Below, piece by piece: positions 40,951 to 64,000 of a stretch of 64,000 nt of DNA. Numbering within the stretch: the first letter of the stretch is position 1; each line of letters begins with the position of its first letter. Origin of the DNA: Escherichia phage ETEC-TG; the sequence record OR786310.1; one strand, 5' to 3'. The notes beneath the pieces were generated by a model. The model made no database searches. It saw nothing but the letters and a program-made list of their open reading frames with translations, and was not told the origin of the DNA. The translations under genes and the position numbers were made by a program.

Positions 40951-41544
40951 TTACACCTTAAAAGCGAAATGCGTGGTCGTGGCTTCAAAATCAGGGCCAG
41001 ATAAACTTGCACTGAAATCTGAAATATTTGTAATTAAAAAGCTTTTATGCATACCTAACACAGCCACGCTTTCAATATCTTCTACTAACATTTCAATCAT
41101 GTTAGAAACATGGCTGAACGTATAGTTTTGTTTTTTGATGGTGTAGAAAGAAAGATTCCCACCTGCTGTATAAGATACTTCTTCAAAATCTTTAATCGTA
41201 TACTGTGTCCCATCAGTAAAGAAAATGGTAGCTTTATTAGTAGCACGTTTCTTGTTTTTTGGTCCTTTTTTACGCTTATTGCGAGTAGGAAAACCATTTG
41301 GAAATACCGTAGCTACAAATTCTTCAGGAGAAACCTCCTTACCGAAATCATAACCATAAGAAACAGCATCTATAAACTCGTCGTCTTCATTTTTAAAATA
41401 ATGAAAATAGGGCCAATTTGAGAGATTATCGAGCATCTTATGCTCATCCACAGCAGAGAACGTATCCCTCAAAGCGCGTGTAATTTGCAAAGCATTAGGC
41501 AAACTTTTAACACCTGTAATGGAAGTACGGATAGAAATTGTCAT
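40951..41544 (-). CDS. Hypothetical protein
   Basis: 197 aa; Lys-rich stretch. Confidence 0.4.
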   Translation of the reverse strand: MTISIRTSITGVKSLPNALQITRALRDTFSAVDEHKMLDNLSNWPYFHYFKNEDDEFIDAVSYGYDFGKEVSPEEFVATVFPNGFPTRNKRKKGPKNKKRATNKATIFFTDGTQYTIKDFEEVSYTAGGNLSFYTIKKQNYTFSHVSNMIEMLVEDIESVAVLGMHKSFLITNISDFSASLSGPDFEATTTHFAFKV

Positions 41545-41558
41545 TGTTTTTCTCCTTA

Positions 41559-41996
41559 TTAACGTCGCTTGCTACGAGATGAACTCTTTTTACTTAAAGG
41601 GCTATTGTAAGATTTACGAGTTGTATAGCTACTATTTGTTTTAAAAGTTTGTCTCGGCTTTTCATAAGTTTTTATCTCTTGTTTAGGCTTACCATAAAAA
41701 TTAGTTTTCGGTTTAGGTGTATTATAATGCTTATTAATAATCGTTCTGTTATCGTTATAATCCCCACTGCTACGATTACTACCGCCACTCATCATATGCC
41801 CTAACAACATACCTGTAGCAAACTCACCAACACCGCTACTACTAGAACCGCCACCATTGTTGATAATAGTTGTATCTCCGTCAGATCCTTGTTGAGCGTA
41901 TTGTTGAGGAGGTTGTTGGTATTGTGCAGGATTTGTTTCATCCTCGCAAGCTGTTAAAAAGATACAACCAATTAAAATCAGGGCTAGTTTTTTCAT
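41559..41996 (-). CDS. Lipoprotein (lipobox LTAC), Gly/Ser-rich
   Basis: Start moved to MKKLALILIGCIFLTAC with GAGGAAA RBS; signal peptide plus lipobox; basic C-terminus. Confidence 0.5.
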   Translation of the reverse strand: MKKLALILIGCIFLTACEDETNPAQYQQPPQQYAQQGSDGDTTIINNGGGSSSSGVGEFATGMLLGHMMSGGSNRSSGDYNDNRTIINKHYNTPKPKTNFYGKPKQEIKTYEKPRQTFKTNSSYTTRKSYNSPLSKKSSSRSKRR

Positions 41997-42179
41997 ATTT
42001 GCTTTCCTCGTTTTGGCTATTAATACATCTGTGTTTGAAATCTCCAGAGAAGCAATAAAGTTGCTCTCCATCTCGGTATAAACTCACTTTACTGCCGTTG
42101 ATTACGCTTGTCAATACAAAAATTACAACAAACAACCCTATTGCAAAACAGATATTTTCAAACACAACCAACAAGTATT

Positions 42180-42530
42180 TCATTTTAAAAATACCTCATC
42201 ATCAGTTTCATTATCCCAGAAGAACAAATCCCAACCATTCGGATCATTCCATTTGGCTGCTGGAGAAGTCCATATTTGTTCGATATCAATATTCAAAACT
42301 TCACCGTTTCGTTTTGAAACAGCTTTAGTTAATTCCCAACGAGATACAGGCTCTACTTCCCCTGAACCACTCCCACAACAAGCTACCACGTTAGGAGGCA
42401 AATTAATTGGATCTTTGGTCACAATCATAACGCTTACCCCAGGGTAAACTTTTGAAAGATAATCTAAAACGTAATCCACATCACCAGATAAATCCCAAAC
42501 AAGTTCTTGAATCTCATCAAAATTATTCAT
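42180..42530 (-). CDS. Hypothetical protein
   Basis: 116 aa; preceded by terminator-like hairpin and GGAGAGA RBS. Confidence 0.45.
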   Translation of the reverse strand: MNNFDEIQELVWDLSGDVDYVLDYLSKVYPGVSVMIVTKDPINLPPNVVACCGSGSGEVEPVSRWELTKAVSKRNGEVLNIDIEQIWTSPAAKWNDPNGWDLFFWDNETDDEVFLK

Positions 42531-42549
42531 AAGTCTCTCCTATAAAATA

Positions 42550-42565
42550 GCCTCCCGAAGGAGGC
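42550..42565 (-). terminator. Rho-independent terminator after TerC gene (UUCG tetraloop)
   Basis: GCCTCC-CGAA-GGAGGC followed on the minus strand by AUUUUAUA. Confidence 0.55.
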
Positions 42566-42572
42566 TCATCTA

Positions 42573-43547
42573 TTAAACAGCAGCTTCTTCTTTTTCAGGG
42601 AAGATAAAGCTTGCAATAACACCAAGAGCTAATGTGCCTAGAACAATCATCAGACTTACGTTAGGGGAAATATCATGCGGGAAGAATGACCACTTGGCAT
42701 GAAGTGTTTCACCGAACGGGTGATACATAAGTTTAGCACCAACAAACACCAGAACCACAGCAACAGCTTTCTCTAAGTGAACCAGATATTTCACAGCTAC
42801 ACTCAACACAAAGAAAAGTGCACGTAAACCAAGAACAGCCATCAGCATTGCAGAATAAACTAGCAGAGGTTCTTGTGTCACACCGATCACAGCCGGAACT
42901 GAATCAAAAGAGAAGACAATATCTGTAAGCTCAATAACAAACACACAAAGAAGAGCAGGAGTTGCATATTTAATACCATTCTTAATGGTGATGAACTTTT
43001 CACCATCCAGTGCATTGTGCACAGGCAGAACTTTACCTACTAAACGAACAGCCCAATGCTTAGAGTAATCAATATCCTCTTCTTCGTCACCACCTTTGAT
43101 GATAGCCACGGCAGACCAAGCTACAATCAAACCGAACAACACTTGGACCGACCAATGAAGGTTAAACAAAGCGGTCCCTGCTGCAACAAAAATACCTCGG
43201 AAGACAATGGCTCCTGCAATCCCCCAAAGTAGAATCTTATGTTGGAGATGTGTGCTCTTAATTCCAAAGCTTGCAAAAATCGCCATGAACACCATCAGGT
43301 TATCTACAGAAAGACTCTTTTCCAACACATAGCCACTTAGGAAAAGCGCGGCAAACTCTTTACCATGTTCTACCCAAATGAATGCGTAATATCCTAAAGC
43401 TAAAGCAATCCAAAAAACAGACCAAAGCAAAGCAGATTTAATTCCAATTTCTTTATTCTCTTTATGACCAAAGAAATCGATACCAATAGACAATGCCAAA
43501 ATACCAACTAAAACAACTACATCAATAATTGGGAAACCGAGTTGCAT
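42573..43547 (-). CDS. terC: TerC-family integral membrane protein
   Basis: 324 aa; multiple TM helices; signature EKSLSVDNLMVF; GAGGAGA RBS. Confidence 0.7.
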   Translation of the reverse strand: MQLGFPIIDVVVLVGILALSIGIDFFGHKENKEIGIKSALLWSVFWIALALGYYAFIWVEHGKEFAALFLSGYVLEKSLSVDNLMVFMAIFASFGIKSTHLQHKILLWGIAGAIVFRGIFVAAGTALFNLHWSVQVLFGLIVAWSAVAIIKGGDEEEDIDYSKHWAVRLVGKVLPVHNALDGEKFITIKNGIKYATPALLCVFVIELTDIVFSFDSVPAVIGVTQEPLLVYSAMLMAVLGLRALFFVLSVAVKYLVHLEKAVAVVLVFVGAKLMYHPFGETLHAKWSFFPHDISPNVSLMIVLGTLALGVIASFIFPEKEEAAV

Positions 43548-43595
43548 TCTTTTCTCCTCTCTTTGCGGGGAACTATTCCCCGCTTCATGTGATAT

Positions 43596-43623
43596 ATCTT
43601 ACTCTTTTTAAGAACTGTGTCAA
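43596..43623 (-). promoter_or_regulatory. Sigma70-like promoter (TTGACA-N16-TAAGAT) upstream of TerC gene
   Basis: Minus-strand -35 TTGACA (43618-43623) inside conserved AAGTGTTGACA motif; -10-like TAAGAT 16 nt downstream. Confidence 0.4.
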
Positions 43624-43626
43624 CAC

Positions 43627-43848
43627 TTATTTTGTTGAATGAGAGGAAAAGATTCCTCGTAATACCGCCAGAATAAACGAAACACAAACCACGGTCCAGA
43701 AGGTTACTGGGACAGTGATATCTGCATGACCCATAACTTCAGCAACATAGTTGTAAGCCAGCAACAGTAACCAAGCTGGAATCAAACTAAGCATAAAAGC
43801 AATAACAAAAAAGCTTACCACTGCAACAATACCTGCAAAAACACCCAT
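43627..43848 (-). CDS. Small membrane protein (two TM helices)
   Basis: 73 aa, hydrophobic. Confidence 0.45.
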   Translation of the reverse strand: MGVFAGIVAVVSFFVIAFMLSLIPAWLLLLAYNYVAEVMGHADITVPVTFWTVVCVSFILAVLRGIFSSHSTK

Positions 43849-43860
43849 ACTAATCTCCTC

Positions 43861-44334
43861 TTAAAGTTTATAAATAGTCACATCGTGACCTGTTTTTACT
43901 AAAGTTTCTTCAATCATCACTTGGATGATAGCCCAATTACCTCCAGCATATCCAGCGCCAATCATAGGTAAGCCGATCTTACATTTTTGGTCACGGAGAA
44001 GCAAATCATTAGCCATAGCTATTAGTGCATCGTAAAGTGCATCATAGTCCAACTGACGACCTTTAGCATTGTATCCGTAACGGTATTGCCCGTATAGATT
44101 ATATACCAAAGGGTCTGATTGTTCGTCTGGCACCCCTAAACTAAAACAACCTAGTTTACTTTGATCACCAGCCATTGTGTCTAAGTCTGCTGCATATGCG
44201 TAAGGAAATGCTTGTTTGATTTGTGGGGCAATACCTGCCCCCATATTACACATACAGTTGCAACAATGAGCAATAACAGTTACTTCACCTGCTTTAGCGG
44301 CATCAATAAGATTACCTCTTTTCATTTTAAGCAT
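43861..44334 (-). CDS. Macro domain protein (ADP-ribose binding/processing)
   Basis: Start moved to ATG with TAAGGAG RBS; motifs GNLIDAAKAGEVTVIAHCCNCMCNMGAGIA and IGLPMIGAGYAGG resemble macro-domain signatures. Confidence 0.5.
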   Translation of the reverse strand: MLKMKRGNLIDAAKAGEVTVIAHCCNCMCNMGAGIAPQIKQAFPYAYAADLDTMAGDQSKLGCFSLGVPDEQSDPLVYNLYGQYRYGYNAKGRQLDYDALYDALIAMANDLLLRDQKCKIGLPMIGAGYAGGNWAIIQVMIEETLVKTGHDVTIYKL

Positions 44335-44347
44335 TTTTAGCTCCTTA

Positions 44348-45175
44348 TTACAGAATGTGTTGTTTTGTGTAACGATCCAAGAATTCAAAGTTTTCAGCAT
44401 ACTTTGAAATTCGGTTGTAACCTTCTCCCAAACATCCAAAGAAAAGTTGCTCTACATAGTAATGTGGCAATTGGCTAAGAATGATTTTGAAGTCTTCATG
44501 ATTTTGGCCCATAAGATACTTAATAGGACGAACAAGACACTGTGCATCACGTTCTTCATTAATCATTTTAACAAACGCTTCTGGTGTATTAATGTAGTTA
44601 AAATTCAGTTTAGCTTCGGTATCTGCTTGATTACCTTCGTATTTTGCAAAATACAAGAAGTAAACATCATTTTTAACTTGATTTTCATCAAGGATCTCAA
44701 TCAGTTTGTCTTCATGCGTTCCAGTGATATTTACATCATCAATGAATACAAGCTTCTTATCACCCCAGAATTCTTTGTTGCAGTAGAATGTATCCCCATC
44801 AATAAGTTTCTTACGACTAGCTTTATCCAAGAAACCATAATCGTTGATATAGCTAACTTTACGATGAATAATGTCCAGTTCTGCTGAACGACCTTGATCA
44901 TATTGTGATTGCAACATATTAAAGTAATTAATAAAATGATCTGTCATCATTGTTGCAGCATTATGCACATGGTTGTAAGGAGAAGGGATGATAACAAATT
45001 GTTCCCCAATATGTTTCATTGCCACTTGAGCAAAAAACTGAAGTGCCAATTCTTTACCCATACGACGCGCAGCCTGGTTACTACCAAATTTCAATTTTGA
45101 ATAATCTTTAATATCAAAAGTAGCAGTTTCCAGGTCATCAAATTTATTTGCAAAAATTTGAGTTTGATTACGCAT
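44348..45175 (-). CDS. Phosphoribosyltransferase-fold (PRTase) protein
   Basis: 275 aa; PRPP-binding-loop-like motif KLVFIDDVNITGT; GAGGAGA RBS. Confidence 0.55.
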   Translation of the reverse strand: MRNQTQIFANKFDDLETATFDIKDYSKLKFGSNQAARRMGKELALQFFAQVAMKHIGEQFVIIPSPYNHVHNAATMMTDHFINYFNMLQSQYDQGRSAELDIIHRKVSYINDYGFLDKASRKKLIDGDTFYCNKEFWGDKKLVFIDDVNITGTHEDKLIEILDENQVKNDVYFLYFAKYEGNQADTEAKLNFNYINTPEAFVKMINEERDAQCLVRPIKYLMGQNHEDFKIILSQLPHYYVEQLFFGCLGEGYNRISKYAENFEFLDRYTKQHIL

Positions 45176-45824
45176 TTACAATTTCTCCTCTTTTAAGTTT
45201 CTCTAGTAAGTCGTTAGGGTTCTTAATATGACAGAAGTTAAATCCTAAGTCAACACATTTTCCATCATATTCTTCACTATCGCCTACGTGCAATACTTCG
45301 TGCCCTAACAGAGGGATCGGAGAATACGTGAGCGTGCGAGCAAAGAATCGCGGATCTGGTTTACAAAGTAAAGCTTCATCCGAGAAATGGGTGAACTCAA
45401 AACAATTCCAACTATCAAACTTACAAGCACGACGCAGGATATCCCCTGATATGAAGTTGGTATTGCTCTTAATACTCAAATCATAACGCCCCGAAAGATA
45501 CAGCAAGTACATCGGCAGATCCACGGCTACGTGTGGTGGAAACTTAAGGAACCACTGTTCACACTCGAAACGAAGCTTTGCAGACTTCCAAGGCGTTATC
45601 CCAAGTTCAGAACCAAGTTTTTCCCAGGCGTATGCTGCACACTCGGCTTTGCCTTGAAGTGCTGCATTATCCAGTTCCTTTTTGATCTTCTTATAAGCTG
45701 CTCTTGCTTCCACTTCCGTAATATCTCCATATTTTGCGATAGTCCAGGCTCGCATATCTGCGTAATTGGAGTTTGCTGTGATCAGTGTGTTCCATACATC
45801 AAAAGAGATATGTTTAATAGTCAT
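45168..45824 (-). CDS. HAD-superfamily hydrolase (subfamily IA-like)
   Basis: 218 aa; motif I FDVWNTL, motif II SIKSNT, motif III CKPDPRFF, motif IV HVGDSEEYD. Confidence 0.6.
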   Translation of the reverse strand: MTIKHISFDVWNTLITANSNYADMRAWTIAKYGDITEVEARAAYKKIKKELDNAALQGKAECAAYAWEKLGSELGITPWKSAKLRFECEQWFLKFPPHVAVDLPMYLLYLSGRYDLSIKSNTNFISGDILRRACKFDSWNCFEFTHFSDEALLCKPDPRFFARTLTYSPIPLLGHEVLHVGDSEEYDGKCVDLGFNFCHIKNPNDLLEKLKRGEIVNA

Positions 45825-45825
45825 A

Positions 45826-46431
45826 TTAAGCCCACCATGCGTCTAAGTTAAGATTACTGTCCACTACCACTTGTTCTATGTGGTAGCCTTTTATCTGTAT
45901 CCCACTGTTCAAGAGCATATCATACGCTTCATTGAAACGCAACTTATCTTCTGCGGAATATAAGCGAGCATTATAAAATCGGTAATCAATTTCTTCAGCA
46001 TTAGAAGAAATACGGAAGAAGTTTGTTTCTACTTCGGGATCACTTGCTGAAGTCTTAATGTGAACTTCTCCGTAATTTTCTTTACTTAGATCCATGAAAA
46101 GAACACAGGCAACATGTTTAAACATTCGTTCCAGTTTGTAACGAACAACATTGAAACCTGCATTCTCAAGTTTTTCTACACACTGCAACATTAAAGTAGT
46201 GTCGAGATCGCTTTGATACTTTGTTAACATACGATCACGTTGAGACTTTGTATCCCGATGTAAATCAATTGTTGTGCATTTGGCACCAATAATCTTAGCT
46301 GCTTTCATCAACTCTTCAGAACTAACGTTAGATAAAGTAAGATGAAAATGGGCTTTCCACACTTTTTTAGCAGGGACACCAAAAGATTTATCCCCACTAT
46401 TCGGCATGTTGACTACTACACTATGTTGCAT
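45826..46431 (-). CDS. Hypothetical protein
   Basis: 201 aa; contains one HLTL motif but no convincing second 2H motif. Confidence 0.4.
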   Translation of the reverse strand: MQHSVVVNMPNSGDKSFGVPAKKVWKAHFHLTLSNVSSEELMKAAKIIGAKCTTIDLHRDTKSQRDRMLTKYQSDLDTTLMLQCVEKLENAGFNVVRYKLERMFKHVACVLFMDLSKENYGEVHIKTSASDPEVETNFFRISSNAEEIDYRFYNARLYSAEDKLRFNEAYDMLLNSGIQIKGYHIEQVVVDSNLNLDAWWA

Positions 46432-46446
46432 TACTTATCTCCTCAC

Positions 46447-46671
46447 TTAAAATGGAAGTCTTTGAAGTTCATCTCCTCCGATATCAAGTAATTTAGCAAC
46501 ATCTCGATCAGAAAGCAACTCTTTTCTTTGTAAAATATCCACAAGGGTTGCAAGAATGTCCTTAACGTCCCGATCACTGTTCTTCAAAAGTTCTCCTGCC
46601 GTCCCTACTCTATCTCCTACAGCAAAATATGTAACCATGAAACCTCCTAAGTTAATCTGATTGCCAACCAC
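46447..46671 (-). CDS. Hypothetical protein
   Basis: 74 aa. Confidence 0.35.
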   Translation of the reverse strand: MVGNQINLGGFMVTYFAVGDRVGTAGELLKNSDRDVKDILATLVDILQRKELLSDRDVAKLLDIGGDELQRLPF

Positions 46672-47122
46672 TTGCCGTTTTGGTCCATAATCTTTGATTA
46701 TCTGACCCTCTGAAAGGTTTTGTAGTTGGATTGTTTATTTCATACTTTCCGTCTACAATGATGTCAACAAGATTTTTAATATACAAAGGCACTTCCTCAA
46801 AAGTATATCCTGTATACACCATTATATCTTTGCTTGACCCATAAACGTCTCTAACCTTTTCTATAAGGTTTTTAACATTGTAAATATTCTGCGGATCTAA
46901 TGGTTCTCCTCCTAAAATTGTTAAACCTTTTACAAACGGTCTTGACAAATCTTTTAAAACTTGCTCTACATTTTCGTGAGTAAACGGTTTCCCATAAGAA
47001 TAAGACCAGGCTTTTTGGTTAAAACAGCCACGACAACCGTGGCTACAACCACTAACCCAGAGGGAGCACCTAACTCCCTCGCCATTAATAAGATCTACAG
47101 GTTCATATCCTGCAAAATTCAA
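46652..47122 (-). CDS. nrdG: Anaerobic ribonucleotide reductase activating protein (radical SAM)
   Basis: 156 aa; CSHGCRGC (CX3CX2C) cluster; ATGA overlap with nrdD. Confidence 0.7.
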   Translation of the reverse strand: MNFAGYEPVDLINGEGVRCSLWVSGCSHGCRGCFNQKAWSYSYGKPFTHENVEQVLKDLSRPFVKGLTILGGEPLDPQNIYNVKNLIEKVRDVYGSSKDIMVYTGYTFEEVPLYIKNLVDIIVDGKYEINNPTTKPFRGSDNQRLWTKTASGWQSD

Positions 47123-61567: not shown

Positions 61568-61595
61568 AAACCCGCTTCGGCGGGTTTTGTTATAT
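61568..61595 (+). terminator. Rho-independent terminator (UUCG tetraloop + T-tract)
   Basis: AAACCCGC-TTCG-GCGGGTTT followed by TGTTATATT. Confidence 0.7.
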
Positions 61596-61629
61596 TGATT
61601 TCAGTTTAATAGGAAGAGAATTGTTAGAT

Positions 61630-62628
61630 ATGCCAGTAAAGAAGAGTATTGAAACATATATGGAAGAATGTAAGCCGATAGCTGAGGCTAAAGGGATTAC
61701 CATTCTCGGCACGTATGGAGAAGATAAAGGTGTGCATACGAAGATGATCAATCGTTGTGAGCATGGTCATGAATGGAATACTACAACGTTTCACAGTTTT
61801 AAAGATGGTCGAGGTTGTCCTAAGTGCGCCTACAGGGAACGTTCGAAAAAGAGAAGCAAAGCTATCACTATTCCAGACCAGCAACACATACAAGATTTTA
61901 TGAAGGTAGGTAAATTTAAGGAAGGCACTATTTTCACCAATACAGGGGAACGTAAAGGGTGTGATATAGTATGGATGGTTGAATGTCCTGTTTGCTCTCA
62001 TGATGAATATGTGGAAGCTGGGGTGTGTGATGGTAAATTCTATGCTACCGGAAGTCATCTTAAACGTGGGTGTCTCCCTTGCCGCTGTTCTACAAGTTAC
62101 AAATACACAGAGGATCAGACCACCTATAGAACAAGAAAGGAAGTAGAAAGGAGAGGATATATATGGGTAGGATGGATCGGTAAACCTTCAACAATGGGTA
62201 AGTTTAAATATGGATGTAAGGAGCACGGGGAACAGATAGGGCGTGCAGATGGTTTGCTACATAAGGGGAGTGGGTGTCCGCAGTGCGGGGGCCAAAACCA
62301 ACAACAATGTTACATTAATCATATTTATGATGAAGATGGTATTCTTTGTGCACTGAAGTTTGGTATTGCCAATAGTAGTGATCGCCGTATCAAAGAACAG
62401 AATAGCCGCAATGTGTTTACTATGAGACAAGTTCAAGTGTGGCAGTTCCCCACTGTGAAGCAGTGCAAAAATTCAGAAAAGTATTGCAAAAAGGTGTTAG
62501 ACACAGAAGCAGTGAGCAAATATGCTATGCCAGACGGCTACACAGAAACAGTGGAGCTATCTTGTCTGGCATCAATACAAAACATTTATAAACTTTATGG
62601 TGGAATATTACAGGAGGAAACATGTTAG
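61630..62628 (+). CDS. Cys/His-rich protein with three zinc-ribbon-like modules and C-terminal T5orf172/GIY-YIG-like region
   Basis: Modules RCEHGHEW...GCPKC, CPVCSHDEY...CLPC, GCKEHGEQ...GCPQCG; C-terminal ALKFGIANSSDRRIKEQNS. Confidence 0.4.
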   Translation: MPVKKSIETYMEECKPIAEAKGITILGTYGEDKGVHTKMINRCEHGHEWNTTTFHSFKDGRGCPKCAYRERSKKRSKAITIPDQQHIQDFMKVGKFKEGTIFTNTGERKGCDIVWMVECPVCSHDEYVEAGVCDGKFYATGSHLKRGCLPCRCSTSYKYTEDQTTYRTRKEVERRGYIWVGWIGKPSTMGKFKYGCKEHGEQIGRADGLLHKGSGCPQCGGQNQQQCYINHIYDEDGILCALKFGIANSSDRRIKEQNSRNVFTMRQVQVWQFPTVKQCKNSEKYCKKVLDTEAVSKYAMPDGYTETVELSCLASIQNIYKLYGGILQEETC

Positions 62629-62987
62629 TTGACGTTCAAATTATGCGCAACGAAAGAATGGACTTCTTTGAAGCAGTAGAGAAACATCTGATCAGATGGG
62701 ACTATGAATTTGTTCCTGCTGGATGTGGACCAGTAGAGCATTTAGCGGAAGACGACGATGTATACATGATCATTCGTCAAGTGTACCAGACAGACCAGTG
62801 TGAAGAAACTCCCGAACTGATTTTGTTTGAGTGTAAAGATCTTGCAAAATATTTTGACTATGGCGGAAAAGAGGGTCATAATCTCTCCAGATACAATAAA
62901 CGTCTACTTATCTTAGACTACATGCGAAACAACAAACACAAACTCATCGACGCAGACGCAGTTTATGGCTACTGGTGGATGGATTAA
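62622..62987 (+). CDS. Hypothetical protein
   Basis: 121 aa. Confidence 0.4.
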   Translation: MLVDVQIMRNERMDFFEAVEKHLIRWDYEFVPAGCGPVEHLAEDDDVYMIIRQVYQTDQCEETPELILFECKDLAKYFDYGGKEGHNLSRYNKRLLILDYMRNNKHKLIDADAVYGYWWMD

Positions 62988-63000
62988 CAAAGGAGAAACT

Positions 63001-63189
63001 ATGGCACGTTTAGCAGATAACCCTGTATTCTACCCCGTTCTTGATCTTTATGATGAATTGACATATGTTGTGGAGCGGTATAACTACAATGAAGATCTTT
63101 TGGAGACAAACCTTAAAGTGGTCCTGATGAAAGCCTATCAGCAAGGGCAACGTGAAATTTTGGAGAGTATGAAAAATGCGAATAACTGA
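63001..63189 (+). CDS. Small hypothetical protein
   Basis: ATG with AAAGGAGAAACT RBS. Confidence 0.35.
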   Translation: MARLADNPVFYPVLDLYDELTYVVERYNYNEDLLETNLKVVLMKAYQQGQREILESMKNANN

Positions 63190-63718
63190 TGATTATGTAT
63201 TCTTCTTTTCACATAAAGATGTGTTTAGTAATTGGTATATTGCACCATTCACAGAGATGGAACCAGGGTACAGTGAGACTTTCTGTTGTGTAGAGCAATA
63301 CATGATGTGGCGTAAGGCTTTGCTGTTCAAGGATCAGGTAATCGCAGCAGCTATCCTTGATCACTCAATGAAGCGAGACGACGAGAAGGGACAGGCATAC
63401 TACAAGCGTATGGGTCGAGCGGTGTCTGGTTTTAATAATGACATGTGGGAAGAGTACCGAGAGCGTATCGTAATGCGAGGCTTATGCTTGAAGTATACAC
63501 AGAACCCTGATCTTTACTCTGACTTGCGACTGTACCAATTCAAAACGTTCGTTGAGGCGAGTCCTTATGATAAGGTTTACGGAATTGGAATGGGTATGTA
63601 CGAACCAGGGGTGCTTAATCCTGCCAACTGGAAAGGGCAGAATCTTTTAGGTAAATATCATAATAAACTGATCGAAATACTTTTCCCAGACAAAATACCG
63701 CAAAGACGATATTTGTGA
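63176..63718 (+). CDS. NADAR-domain (YbiA-like) protein
   Basis: 180 aa; N-terminal YVFFFSHKDVFSNWY ... FCCVEQYMMWRKALLFKD ... AAAILDH matches NADAR/DUF1768 pattern. Confidence 0.55.
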   Translation: MRITDDYVFFFSHKDVFSNWYIAPFTEMEPGYSETFCCVEQYMMWRKALLFKDQVIAAAILDHSMKRDDEKGQAYYKRMGRAVSGFNNDMWEEYRERIVMRGLCLKYTQNPDLYSDLRLYQFKTFVEASPYDKVYGIGMGMYEPGVLNPANWKGQNLLGKYHNKLIEILFPDKIPQRRYL

Positions 63719-63774
63719 TATTTTAACTTTTTTCATTTTTAGAACAAAGGTGTCACTTTGTAGCACAGAAATAA

Positions 63775-63808
63775 GGCTCCTACAGCACCGTAGAGAGCCT
63801 GTTATTTT
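63775..63808 (+). terminator. Rho-independent terminator after NADAR gene
   Basis: Nested hairpin GGCTCC-TACAGCACCGTAGA-GAGCC followed by TGTTATTTTGT. Confidence 0.55.
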
Positions 63809-64000
63809 GTCCTATACAAACCCTTATCTTTTTCAGTTTGCATCGCTAGGATTCGATCTAAGTGGGTTCCTGAAGGTCTACTAATAAGATTAAAGGTTAT
63901 ATCAAATTCCCACTATCCATTATCTCAAAAATCCTTCAAATTATTTAAACTTTTTAAGAATTTACAAAAGTGAAAGTTGAAAACCAAAATTTAAAGTTTA

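Follow-up and report, generated by a model that had tools for sequence, protein, structure and literature searches.

The closest described counterpart of the protein considered here is AdfN^Bas60 of phage Bas60. In the work of Johannesman et al. (Nat Commun 2025, PMC11825919), AdfN^Bas60 neutralises the toxin DarT1 in uninfected Escherichia coli, gives back full titre to three unrelated DarTG1-sensitive phages (RB69, T5 and Bas25) and is without effect on the thymine-modifying system DarTG2. Such an activity against DarTG1 and not against DarTG2 has been shown only for AdfN^T4, AdfN^Bas32 and AdfN^Bas60, and AdfN^T4 is fully active only in a T-even context, a dependence not shared by AdfN^Bas60 (PMC11825919). 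In vitro, four of the four NADAR subtypes tested remove ADP-ribose (ADPr) from guanine (G-ADPr) and not from thymine (T-ADPr) (PMC11125620). Here, we analysed a stretch of 64,000 nucleotides (nt) of Escherichia phage ETEC-TG (OR786310.1), called the window below and used for all coordinates, in which a gene close to the end encodes a NADAR-domain protein (Table 1). We consider it likely, by analogy with AdfN^Bas60, that this protein is an orphan, stand-alone ADP-ribosyl-glycohydrolase of the same lineage, acting in counter-defence against DarTG1 by removing G-ADPr from DNA.

Fold and active site of the NADAR protein

A NADAR signature had been read in this gene in a preliminary description of the DNA, and the profile searches bear this out. 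Pfam NADAR (PF08719, DUF1768) matches residues 11-161 with 116.9 bits against a gathering cut-off of 35.1 (E = 1.4e-33) and covers most of the domain (profile positions 3-154 of 163), and matches were also obtained with NCBIfam TIGR02464 (109.7 bits, cut-off 73.7) and phrog_1017 (E = 4e-49), all of them well outside what chance would give. With 70 homologues as input, AlphaFold2 gave a model with a mean pLDDT of 95.6, a pTM of 0.89 and a low-confidence tail at residues 170-180; its strands (7-10, 25-29, 32-36 and 124-127) and six helices correspond to the NADAR fold, in which small beta-hairpins flank a helical core. Foldseek searches of the PDB with this model gave only two significant matches, 8bau, the Phytophthora nicotianae NADAR (PnNADAR) with ADPr (E = 1.5e-9, TM 0.79), and 2b3w, the E. 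coli YbiA (TM 0.69-0.74). The best match to a solved structure in phmmer was again 8bau (E = 2.3e-12).

The ADPr-binding and catalytic residues of PnNADAR have been established by Schuller et al. (PMC11543638), including a conserved Glu/Lys pair seven residues apart (E43/K50 in PnNADAR and E88/K95 in the E. coli C7 NADAR). Their equivalents in the phage protein were located by residue alignment (Table 1), and W133, which becomes Tyr135, is the one mapped ADPr contact that we count as replaced. The N-terminal catalytic residues, on whose presence the assignment had been made to depend beforehand, are there as E40 and K47. Indeed, E40, K47, G80, W91, E127 and D132 are invariant in all 70 homologues. 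The diagnostic active-site position is occupied by Glu127, within an E-x4-D-x2-aromatic motif, and a clade-specific insertion of seven residues is found at about 63-72, beside the ADPr site. Taken together, the sequence and the predicted structure indicate that the gene product is a real NADAR-fold enzyme.

Orthology with AdfN^Bas60 and proposed function

The phage protein is 58% identical over 172 amino acids (aa) to bas60_0111 (QXV83846.1; E = 6e-68), which we equated with AdfN^Bas60 through the bas60_ locus tags of MZ501100. Bas60 (PaulScherrer, MZ501100) is a phi92-like phage of the genus Justusliebigvirus, while the window belongs to Phapecoctavirus, the phAPEC8-like E. coli myophages; both are sister genera of the subfamily Stephanstirmvirinae. 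The gene order is common to the two genera, with an AAA ATPase gene followed by an endonuclease-like gene, the NADAR gene and a long non-coding gap. As AdfN^Bas60 neutralises DarT1, this identity and the common gene order make the removal of ADPr from guanine in phage DNA the likeliest function of the phage protein. Our own analysis provides the fold, an intact active site, orthology, a common gene order, the retention of the gene and its purifying selection (see below). The substrate, G-ADPr in DNA, and the role against DarTG1 would follow from what has been published on other NADARs and on the relative with 58% identity.

According to this proposal, when E. coli carrying DarTG1 is infected, DarT1 would use NAD+ to attach ADPr at N2 of guanine in the single-stranded DNA of the phage, a modification that would stall replication. 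The phage NADAR would then bind the ADPr moiety, with K47, R81, W91, R95, D132 and Y135 contacting the diphosphate, F86 stacking on the adenine and E40 and E127 holding the distal ribose, and would hydrolyse the N-glycosidic bond between ribose and guanine, leaving unmodified DNA. No DarT or Alt-like ADP-ribosyltransferase (ART) was found beside the NADAR gene or elsewhere in the window by open reading frame (ORF) map, profile search and Alt homology, and the NADAR protein would therefore be an orphan eraser. We also considered that the NADAR protein might protect the phage from an Alt-like ART of its own, and rejected this idea, as a search for Alt, the one such ART covered, found no homologue in the window.

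Several points weigh against this assignment. YbiA and the T4 protein gp30.3 remove G-ADPr in vitro, yet they do not rescue uninfected cells from DarT1 (PMC11125620), showing that protection in vivo is not guaranteed by the fold. An identity of 58% to AdfN^Bas60 leaves space for a shift of specificity. The change of W133 to Tyr and the seven-residue insertion beside the ADPr site also count against it. We found no literature linking the NADAR of Phapecoctavirus with DarTG. In addition, according to the mention made of it in PMC11825919 (its ref. 37), another phage NADAR needs no enzymatic activity, which suggests that phage NADARs can have other roles.

Alternative functions

The alternative that survives best, although we regard it as unlikely, is that of a broader eraser of nucleic-acid ADPr, acting on cytidine (C-ADPr) as well as on guanine, in DNA and RNA, with an ART other than DarT1 as its main target (pierisin/ScARP-like, YarT-like or belonging to an undiscovered defence). 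This would extend the explanation proposed above and would not contradict it. On both DNA and RNA, Glu-type NADARs and YbiA act on C-ADPr as well as G-ADPr; NADARs of the Asp-type (DarG1) and His-type (T4) are limited to G-ADPr (PMC12945103). In addition, a YbiA-type enzyme is described in PMC11125620 as the antitoxin to a toxin other than DarT, YarT. The presence of Glu127 in its motif and the closest solved structure, 8bau, a NADAR of the group known as NADAR proper, are in line with such a range. To our knowledge, however, there is no known cytidine-targeting ART defence in E. coli. Moreover, the only close relative that has been tested, AdfN^Bas60, is fully effective against DarT1 (PMC11825919).

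A second possibility, which we find improbable, is that the protein degrades or sequesters small ADPr-derived immune signals, such as the cyclic ADPR isomers of TIR/Thoeris-type systems or free ADPr, instead of acting on DNA adducts (PMC9503650). The NADAR fold does bind free ADPr, as seen in 8bau, but this activity is not reported for any NADAR in the literature that we consulted, and every NADAR tested later acts on base-linked ADPr (PMC11125620, PMC12945103), including the closest tested relative, which counters DarT1 (PMC11825919). Moreover, the ORF map and Pfam show neither a fusion to a SLOG, DUF4326 or Nudix partner nor a neighbouring gene for one. The suggestion in the preliminary description that the phage handles ADPr produced during infection found no specific support.

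By Carabias and colleagues, in 2024, a phage NADAR named U56 was reportedly found to bind ADPr and to inhibit the N-glycosidase of Retron-Eco1. A stoichiometric inhibitor of an NAD+-consuming effector, modelled on the phage NADAR of the Retron-Eco1 study as this is cited in PMC11825919, would be compatible with the intact ADPr-binding pocket, but we hold it to be very improbable for the present protein: the catalytic residues are all invariant and maintained by purifying selection, something that ADPr binding alone does not obviously require, and T5-like phages were not retrieved by the NADAR query at E<=1e-5.

Finally, a housekeeping N-glycosidase of the YbiA type, destroying reactive intermediates of the riboflavin pathway, is the least likely of the alternatives and hardly credible: the TIGR02464 family ("riboflavin biosynthesis intermediates N-glycosidase") matches above its cut-off because the domain is common to YbiA-type and phage NADARs, and a profile-profile comparison of the clade with E. 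coli YbiA gives 98.9% probability, but the identity to YbiA is only 28-29%, there are no riboflavin genes, RibA/RibD fusions or dinG-ybiB context, Johannesman et al. placed the Bas60 lineage with the non-YbiA NADARs (PMC11825919), a lytic phage has no evident need of such an enzyme, and the corresponding labels in several GenBank records reflect annotation transfer from domain fusions. The "YbiA-like", riboflavin-related description initially given to the gene is thus supported neither by its genomic context nor by its closest relatives.

Distribution and allelic structure of the NADAR gene

About 70 phage records of the genus Phapecoctavirus in GenBank match the NADAR region with 85-95% identity, and the closest genome overall is that of Escherichia phage dw-ec. 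The protein is encoded in 70 of 70 Phapecoctavirus-type records with at least 80% aa identity, and the number of records bearing it is at least that of the records with the core region 41000-47000. This is the pattern expected of a gene common to the whole genus. In 12 sequences examined, no truncation ahead of the last helix was seen, and there is a single NADAR per genome. The carriers in Justusliebigvirus include the BASEL phages Bas60, Bas61 (EmilieFrey) and JohannJBalmer (MZ501084). The nearest non-phage homologues in the databases (P0087, P0069 and P0030; L022-L026) come from bacterial or eukaryotic assemblies and are 41-48% identical; in those inspected, no DarT or other ART is located next to the gene, the neighbours being small unannotated ORFs, a Gp3-like protein or an AbiEii-like protein. 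They are probably prophages or phage contigs.

Two observations concern the records themselves. The gene is labelled in GenBank as "hypothetical protein", "GTP cyclohydrolase II" or "YbiA-like N-glycosidase". The cyclohydrolase name has been carried over in error from the annotation of plant RibA-NADAR fusions, as the protein has no cyclohydrolase domain. In addition, near-identical genomes (86-89% at 62000-64000 and up to 99% at 41000-47000) are entered in the database with Campylobacter, Acinetobacter, Pseudomonas or Klebsiella as the host, which seems doubtful for a phAPEC8-like coliphage.

To compare alleles, we used 11 Phapecoctavirus genomes from GenBank phage records, IMG/VR having provided only five related loci. 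The ATPase gene, the 121-codon ORF and the intergenic region downstream are mostly 97-100% identical to the window, with the exception of one metagenomic contig, whose ATPase gene reaches 74% and whose 121-codon ORF reaches 85%. In contrast, the nucleotide identity of the NADAR gene falls into discrete classes of 99%, 94%, 87-89% and 82-83%. According to the sliding identity, the divergence is confined to a core (Table 1), whereas the first ~70 nt and the last ~70 nt of the gene, together with both flanks, are 96-100% identical. These conserved ends could serve as recombination anchors.

Between the classes, the synonymous divergence (dS) reaches 0.5-1.1 and the ratio of nonsynonymous to synonymous divergence (dN/dS) is 0.07-0.12. 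These values indicate old functional alleles shuffled by recombination and rule out diversifying selection or decay as the source of the divergence. Indeed, the NADAR gene is under strong purifying selection. The aa differences between alleles fall mainly within two stretches, 52-72 and 84-94, adjoining the ADPr/adenine site and the position of K77, which is implicated in substrate recognition. The catalytic residues are all fixed. This allele structure may not have been described before in Phapecoctavirus. A more speculative idea, in which we place little confidence, is that the alleles are specificity variants for different host nucleic-acid ARTs, forming a polymorphic counter-defence cassette. 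If so, each variant could be tuned to a different ART, the Glu-type site could widen the range to cytidine- or RNA-linked ADPr, and the alleles would help to set the host range.

The macro-domain protein as a putative second eraser

The preliminary description had associated the NADAR gene with a macro domain encoded elsewhere in the window (Table 1). The macro domain is real, but its gene lies 19 kb away on the opposite strand, in a different transcription unit, so that the two are unlinked. Although the protein scores 21.6 bits with Pfam Macro, 0.4 below the 22-bit cut-off, phmmer searches of the PDB retrieved SCO6735 of S. coelicolor (5e3b, E = 2.5e-12), the Thermus DarG (5m31, E = 1.7e-6) and human TARG1 (E = 3e-6), PADLOC gave a DarG match (E = 1e-9), and the protein is 34% identical to T4 Tk.4 (E = 7e-21). 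An Asn aligns to DarG N22, and the position of DarG K80 reads GQY, compared with GQH in SCO6735 and TQF in Tk.4. These alignments place the macro protein in the TARG1/DarG/SCO6735 class and make it a Tk.4/AdfM homologue.

SCO6735, DarG and TARG1 are all tabulated as hydrolases of thymidine-ADPr in DNA (PMC12945103). Tk.4 is the anti-DarTG2 factor AdfM of T4, identified by a transposon screen (bioRxiv 10.1101/2025.11.20.689424), and a macrodomain AdfM has also been shown in chimalliviruses (PMC13309987). By analogy, the macro protein is probably an eraser of thymidine-ADPr for the DarT2 modification. As a Tk.4/AdfM homologue would cover the thymidine modification, we infer that the phage has a two-eraser set like that of T4, probably with one eraser per DarT chemistry. 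The earlier proposal that the phage carries two ADPr-related domains, consistent with the reversal of ADP-ribosylation, agrees well with this pairing of an AdfN^Bas60 counterpart and a Tk.4/AdfM homologue.

The macro gene is the final gene of a minus-strand run (43861-45824), after a gene for a HAD-like hydrolase and one for a ComF-like phosphoribosyltransferase (PRTase). This trio suggests a module for nucleotide or ADPr-phosphate processing. It does not correspond to the NAD+ pathway NARP3, which consists of PnuC and NadR. Likewise, Atd1, an "anti-TIR" factor listed for Phapecoctavirus, is a MazG-like pyrophosphatase and not the NADAR gene.

Genomic context of the NADAR gene

According to Pfam and PHROG, the neighbours of the NADAR gene are an AAA ATPase gene, a gene for a CapR/treble-clef endonuclease-like protein and two small ORFs. 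The second of these, a 74-codon ORF (62965..63189), overlaps the start of the NADAR gene by 14 nt, and the NADAR gene is therefore probably co-transcribed and translationally coupled with the preceding small ORFs. Downstream, a hairpin (AGGCTCCTAC-AGCACC-GTAGAGAGCCT) followed by a T-rich run (GTTATTTTG) resembles an intrinsic terminator. The RNA fold of 63715-63830 has -31.3 kcal/mol (z = -4.3 against shuffled controls), the hairpin is identical across seven aligned related genomes, and the phAPEC8 annotation places a terminator (ARNold) at the equivalent position. This conserved hairpin and the phAPEC8 annotation indicate that the NADAR gene is the last of its plus-strand unit. As initially described, it is also the last plausible plus-strand gene of the window, the only further ORF on this strand being one of 44 codons with a GTG start, within the conserved terminator/intergenic stretch. 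The structured sequence is not a tRNA, as ARAGORN finds none in the window, and an Rfam search of the equivalent stretch in the relative L013 recovered no family and a single chance-level miRNA match (E = 0.57).

Table 1. Features of the NADAR and macro loci, with the residues of the phage NADAR aligned to PnNADAR. Positions are those of the window unless a related locus (L) is named.
Feature	Position	Strand	Details
NADAR-domain protein gene	63176..63718	+	ATG..TGA ORF, 180 codons/180 aa
Shine-Dalgarno GGAGAG	63162..63167	+	8 nt before the NADAR ATG, within the 3' end of ORF 62965..63189
NADAR allelic core	63250..63650 (about)	+	60-92% identity per 50-nt window of the sliding comparison
Intrinsic-terminator-like hairpin, followed by a T-rich run	63774..63800	+	Closes the plus-strand unit
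CapR/treble-clef zinc-finger endonuclease-like gene	61621..62628		TTG start; 1008 nt (1185-1203 nt in other genomes)
Macro-domain protein gene	43861..44334	-	157 aa; ATG at 44334 preceded by AAGGAG
ComF-like PRTase gene	44348..45175	-	PF15610, E = 1.7e-41; immediately upstream of the macro gene
HAD-like hydrolase gene	45168..45824	-	Upstream of the macro gene, beside the PRTase gene
Fur-box-like palindromes	L013 5186-5262; L003 4989-5083; L002 3989-4083; L008 6989-7083		
PnNADAR E43; K50	E40; K47		Residue alignment
PnNADAR K75; G78/R79	K77; G80/R81		Residue alignment
PnNADAR Y84; W89; R93	F86; W91; R95		Residue alignment
PnNADAR E125; D130; W133	E127; D132; Y135		Residue alignment

Two of the neighbours are biallelic across the Phapecoctavirus genomes, the endonuclease-like gene (100% versus 76% nucleotide identity) and the 74-codon ORF (98-99% versus 74%). 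Their alleles assort independently of the NADAR allele. The intervening 121-codon ORF is conserved. Between the ATPase and the endonuclease-like genes (61568-61587), a GC-rich hairpin with a perfect 8-bp stem, AAACCCGC-TTCG-GCGGGTTT, has a terminator score on both strands.

The non-coding region after the NADAR gene displays two further features. A direct repeat of 72 nt, in two copies that are 82% identical and with an embedded unit of 29 nt in three copies, extends from 63937-64000 of the window onward (4938-5147 in L013). It contains a sigma70-like site, TTTACA-18-CAAAAT, and the repeats may be reiterated promoters. About 450 nt past the NADAR stop codon, and thus outside the window, a cluster of Fur-box-like palindromes is found in both Phapecoctavirus and Justusliebigvirus, four of them in tandem in the latter. 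Their core, AATGAnAATCATTnTC, has three to five mismatches to GATAATGATAATCATTATC, and shuffled L013 sequence gives 0.3 hits. Located in a long conserved non-coding region, these palindromes could be operators of the host Fur or of a phage repressor.

Implications

The NADAR gene of the window appears as a further example of the known AdfN counter-defence and, because both the mechanism and the closest relative have already been published, it does not change the current understanding of these enzymes. Nevertheless, it gives a probable function, the de-ADP-ribosylation of DNA against DarTG1, to a gene present in every phAPEC8-like record that we found. Phages of this type are often isolated and described with a view to therapy or biocontrol, and the assignment is therefore relevant to the prediction of their host range on DarTG-bearing E. 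coli. The pair of genes suggests that Stephanstirmvirinae, like T4, have one eraser for guanine, the NADAR, and another for thymine, the macro-domain protein. In addition, the NADAR gene offers a natural allelic series for studies of substrate recognition.

Comparison with other NADAR lineages

Among the NADARs described so far, the DarG1 antitoxins and the T-even proteins differ from the phage protein at the diagnostic active-site position. DarG1, the antitoxin of DarTG1, has the same fold and, by inference, would share its reaction and substrate. Unlike DarG1, however, the phage NADAR has no adjacent DarT1 and no N-terminal extension, starting directly at the core, and it presents Glu127 in place of an Asp (D171 in the E. 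coli C7 DarG1). These three differences exclude it from the DarG1 antitoxins. AdfN^T4 (gp30.3) belongs to the same superfamily and has the same proposed role, that of an orphan G-ADPr eraser countering DarTG1, and the Glu-x6-Lys pair is common to both (E36/K43 in AdfN^T4 and E40/K47 here). In contrast, their pairwise similarity is not significant (BLASTP E = 1.9; hhalign probability 26%), and T4 H123, the diagnostic His of the T-even proteins (PMC11543638), aligns with Glu127. The phage protein is therefore not a member of the T-even "phage NADAR" lineage, as both the Glu and the BLASTP result show.

E. coli YbiA shares the fold and the Glu-type active site. Nevertheless, the length of the PYD..GIGMG..NWKGQN segment in the phage clade is not seen in YbiA, and the genomic setting of the latter, a LexA-controlled dinG/ybiB neighbourhood, is unlike the phage locus. 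The low identity and the lack of this setting or of a riboflavin context set the phage protein apart from the YbiA-type class of N-glycosidases. The group of NADAR proper, which comprises the P. nicotianae NADAR (8bau), S. coelicolor SCO5665 and the E. coli sigma70-operon NADAR, is closer: 8bau and the phage protein have the same Glu-type motif, although the latter is only 27% identical, is phage-borne and differs in its seven-residue insertion and in a longer loop at 27-35. That the best solved relative is an enzyme of this group is in line with the earlier grouping of AdfN^Bas60 with NADARs that are neither YbiA nor DarG1 (PMC11825919).

The closest comparison is with AdfN^Bas60 itself, the member of this pair for which, alone, activity has been shown. 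The two proteins differ at 42% of positions, and their loci differ in that two small ORFs (121 and 74 aa) separate the endonuclease and NADAR genes in the window, whereas these genes abut in Bas60. The NADAR gene is also polymorphic in Phapecoctavirus (82-99% nucleotide identity) and near-invariant in Justusliebigvirus (56 records with at least 95%). Nevertheless, each protein stands alone, with a length of about 180 aa, and they are alike in the Glu-type active site, in the clade-specific insertion before the GR motif and in the replacement of Trp by Tyr at the position of PnNADAR W133.

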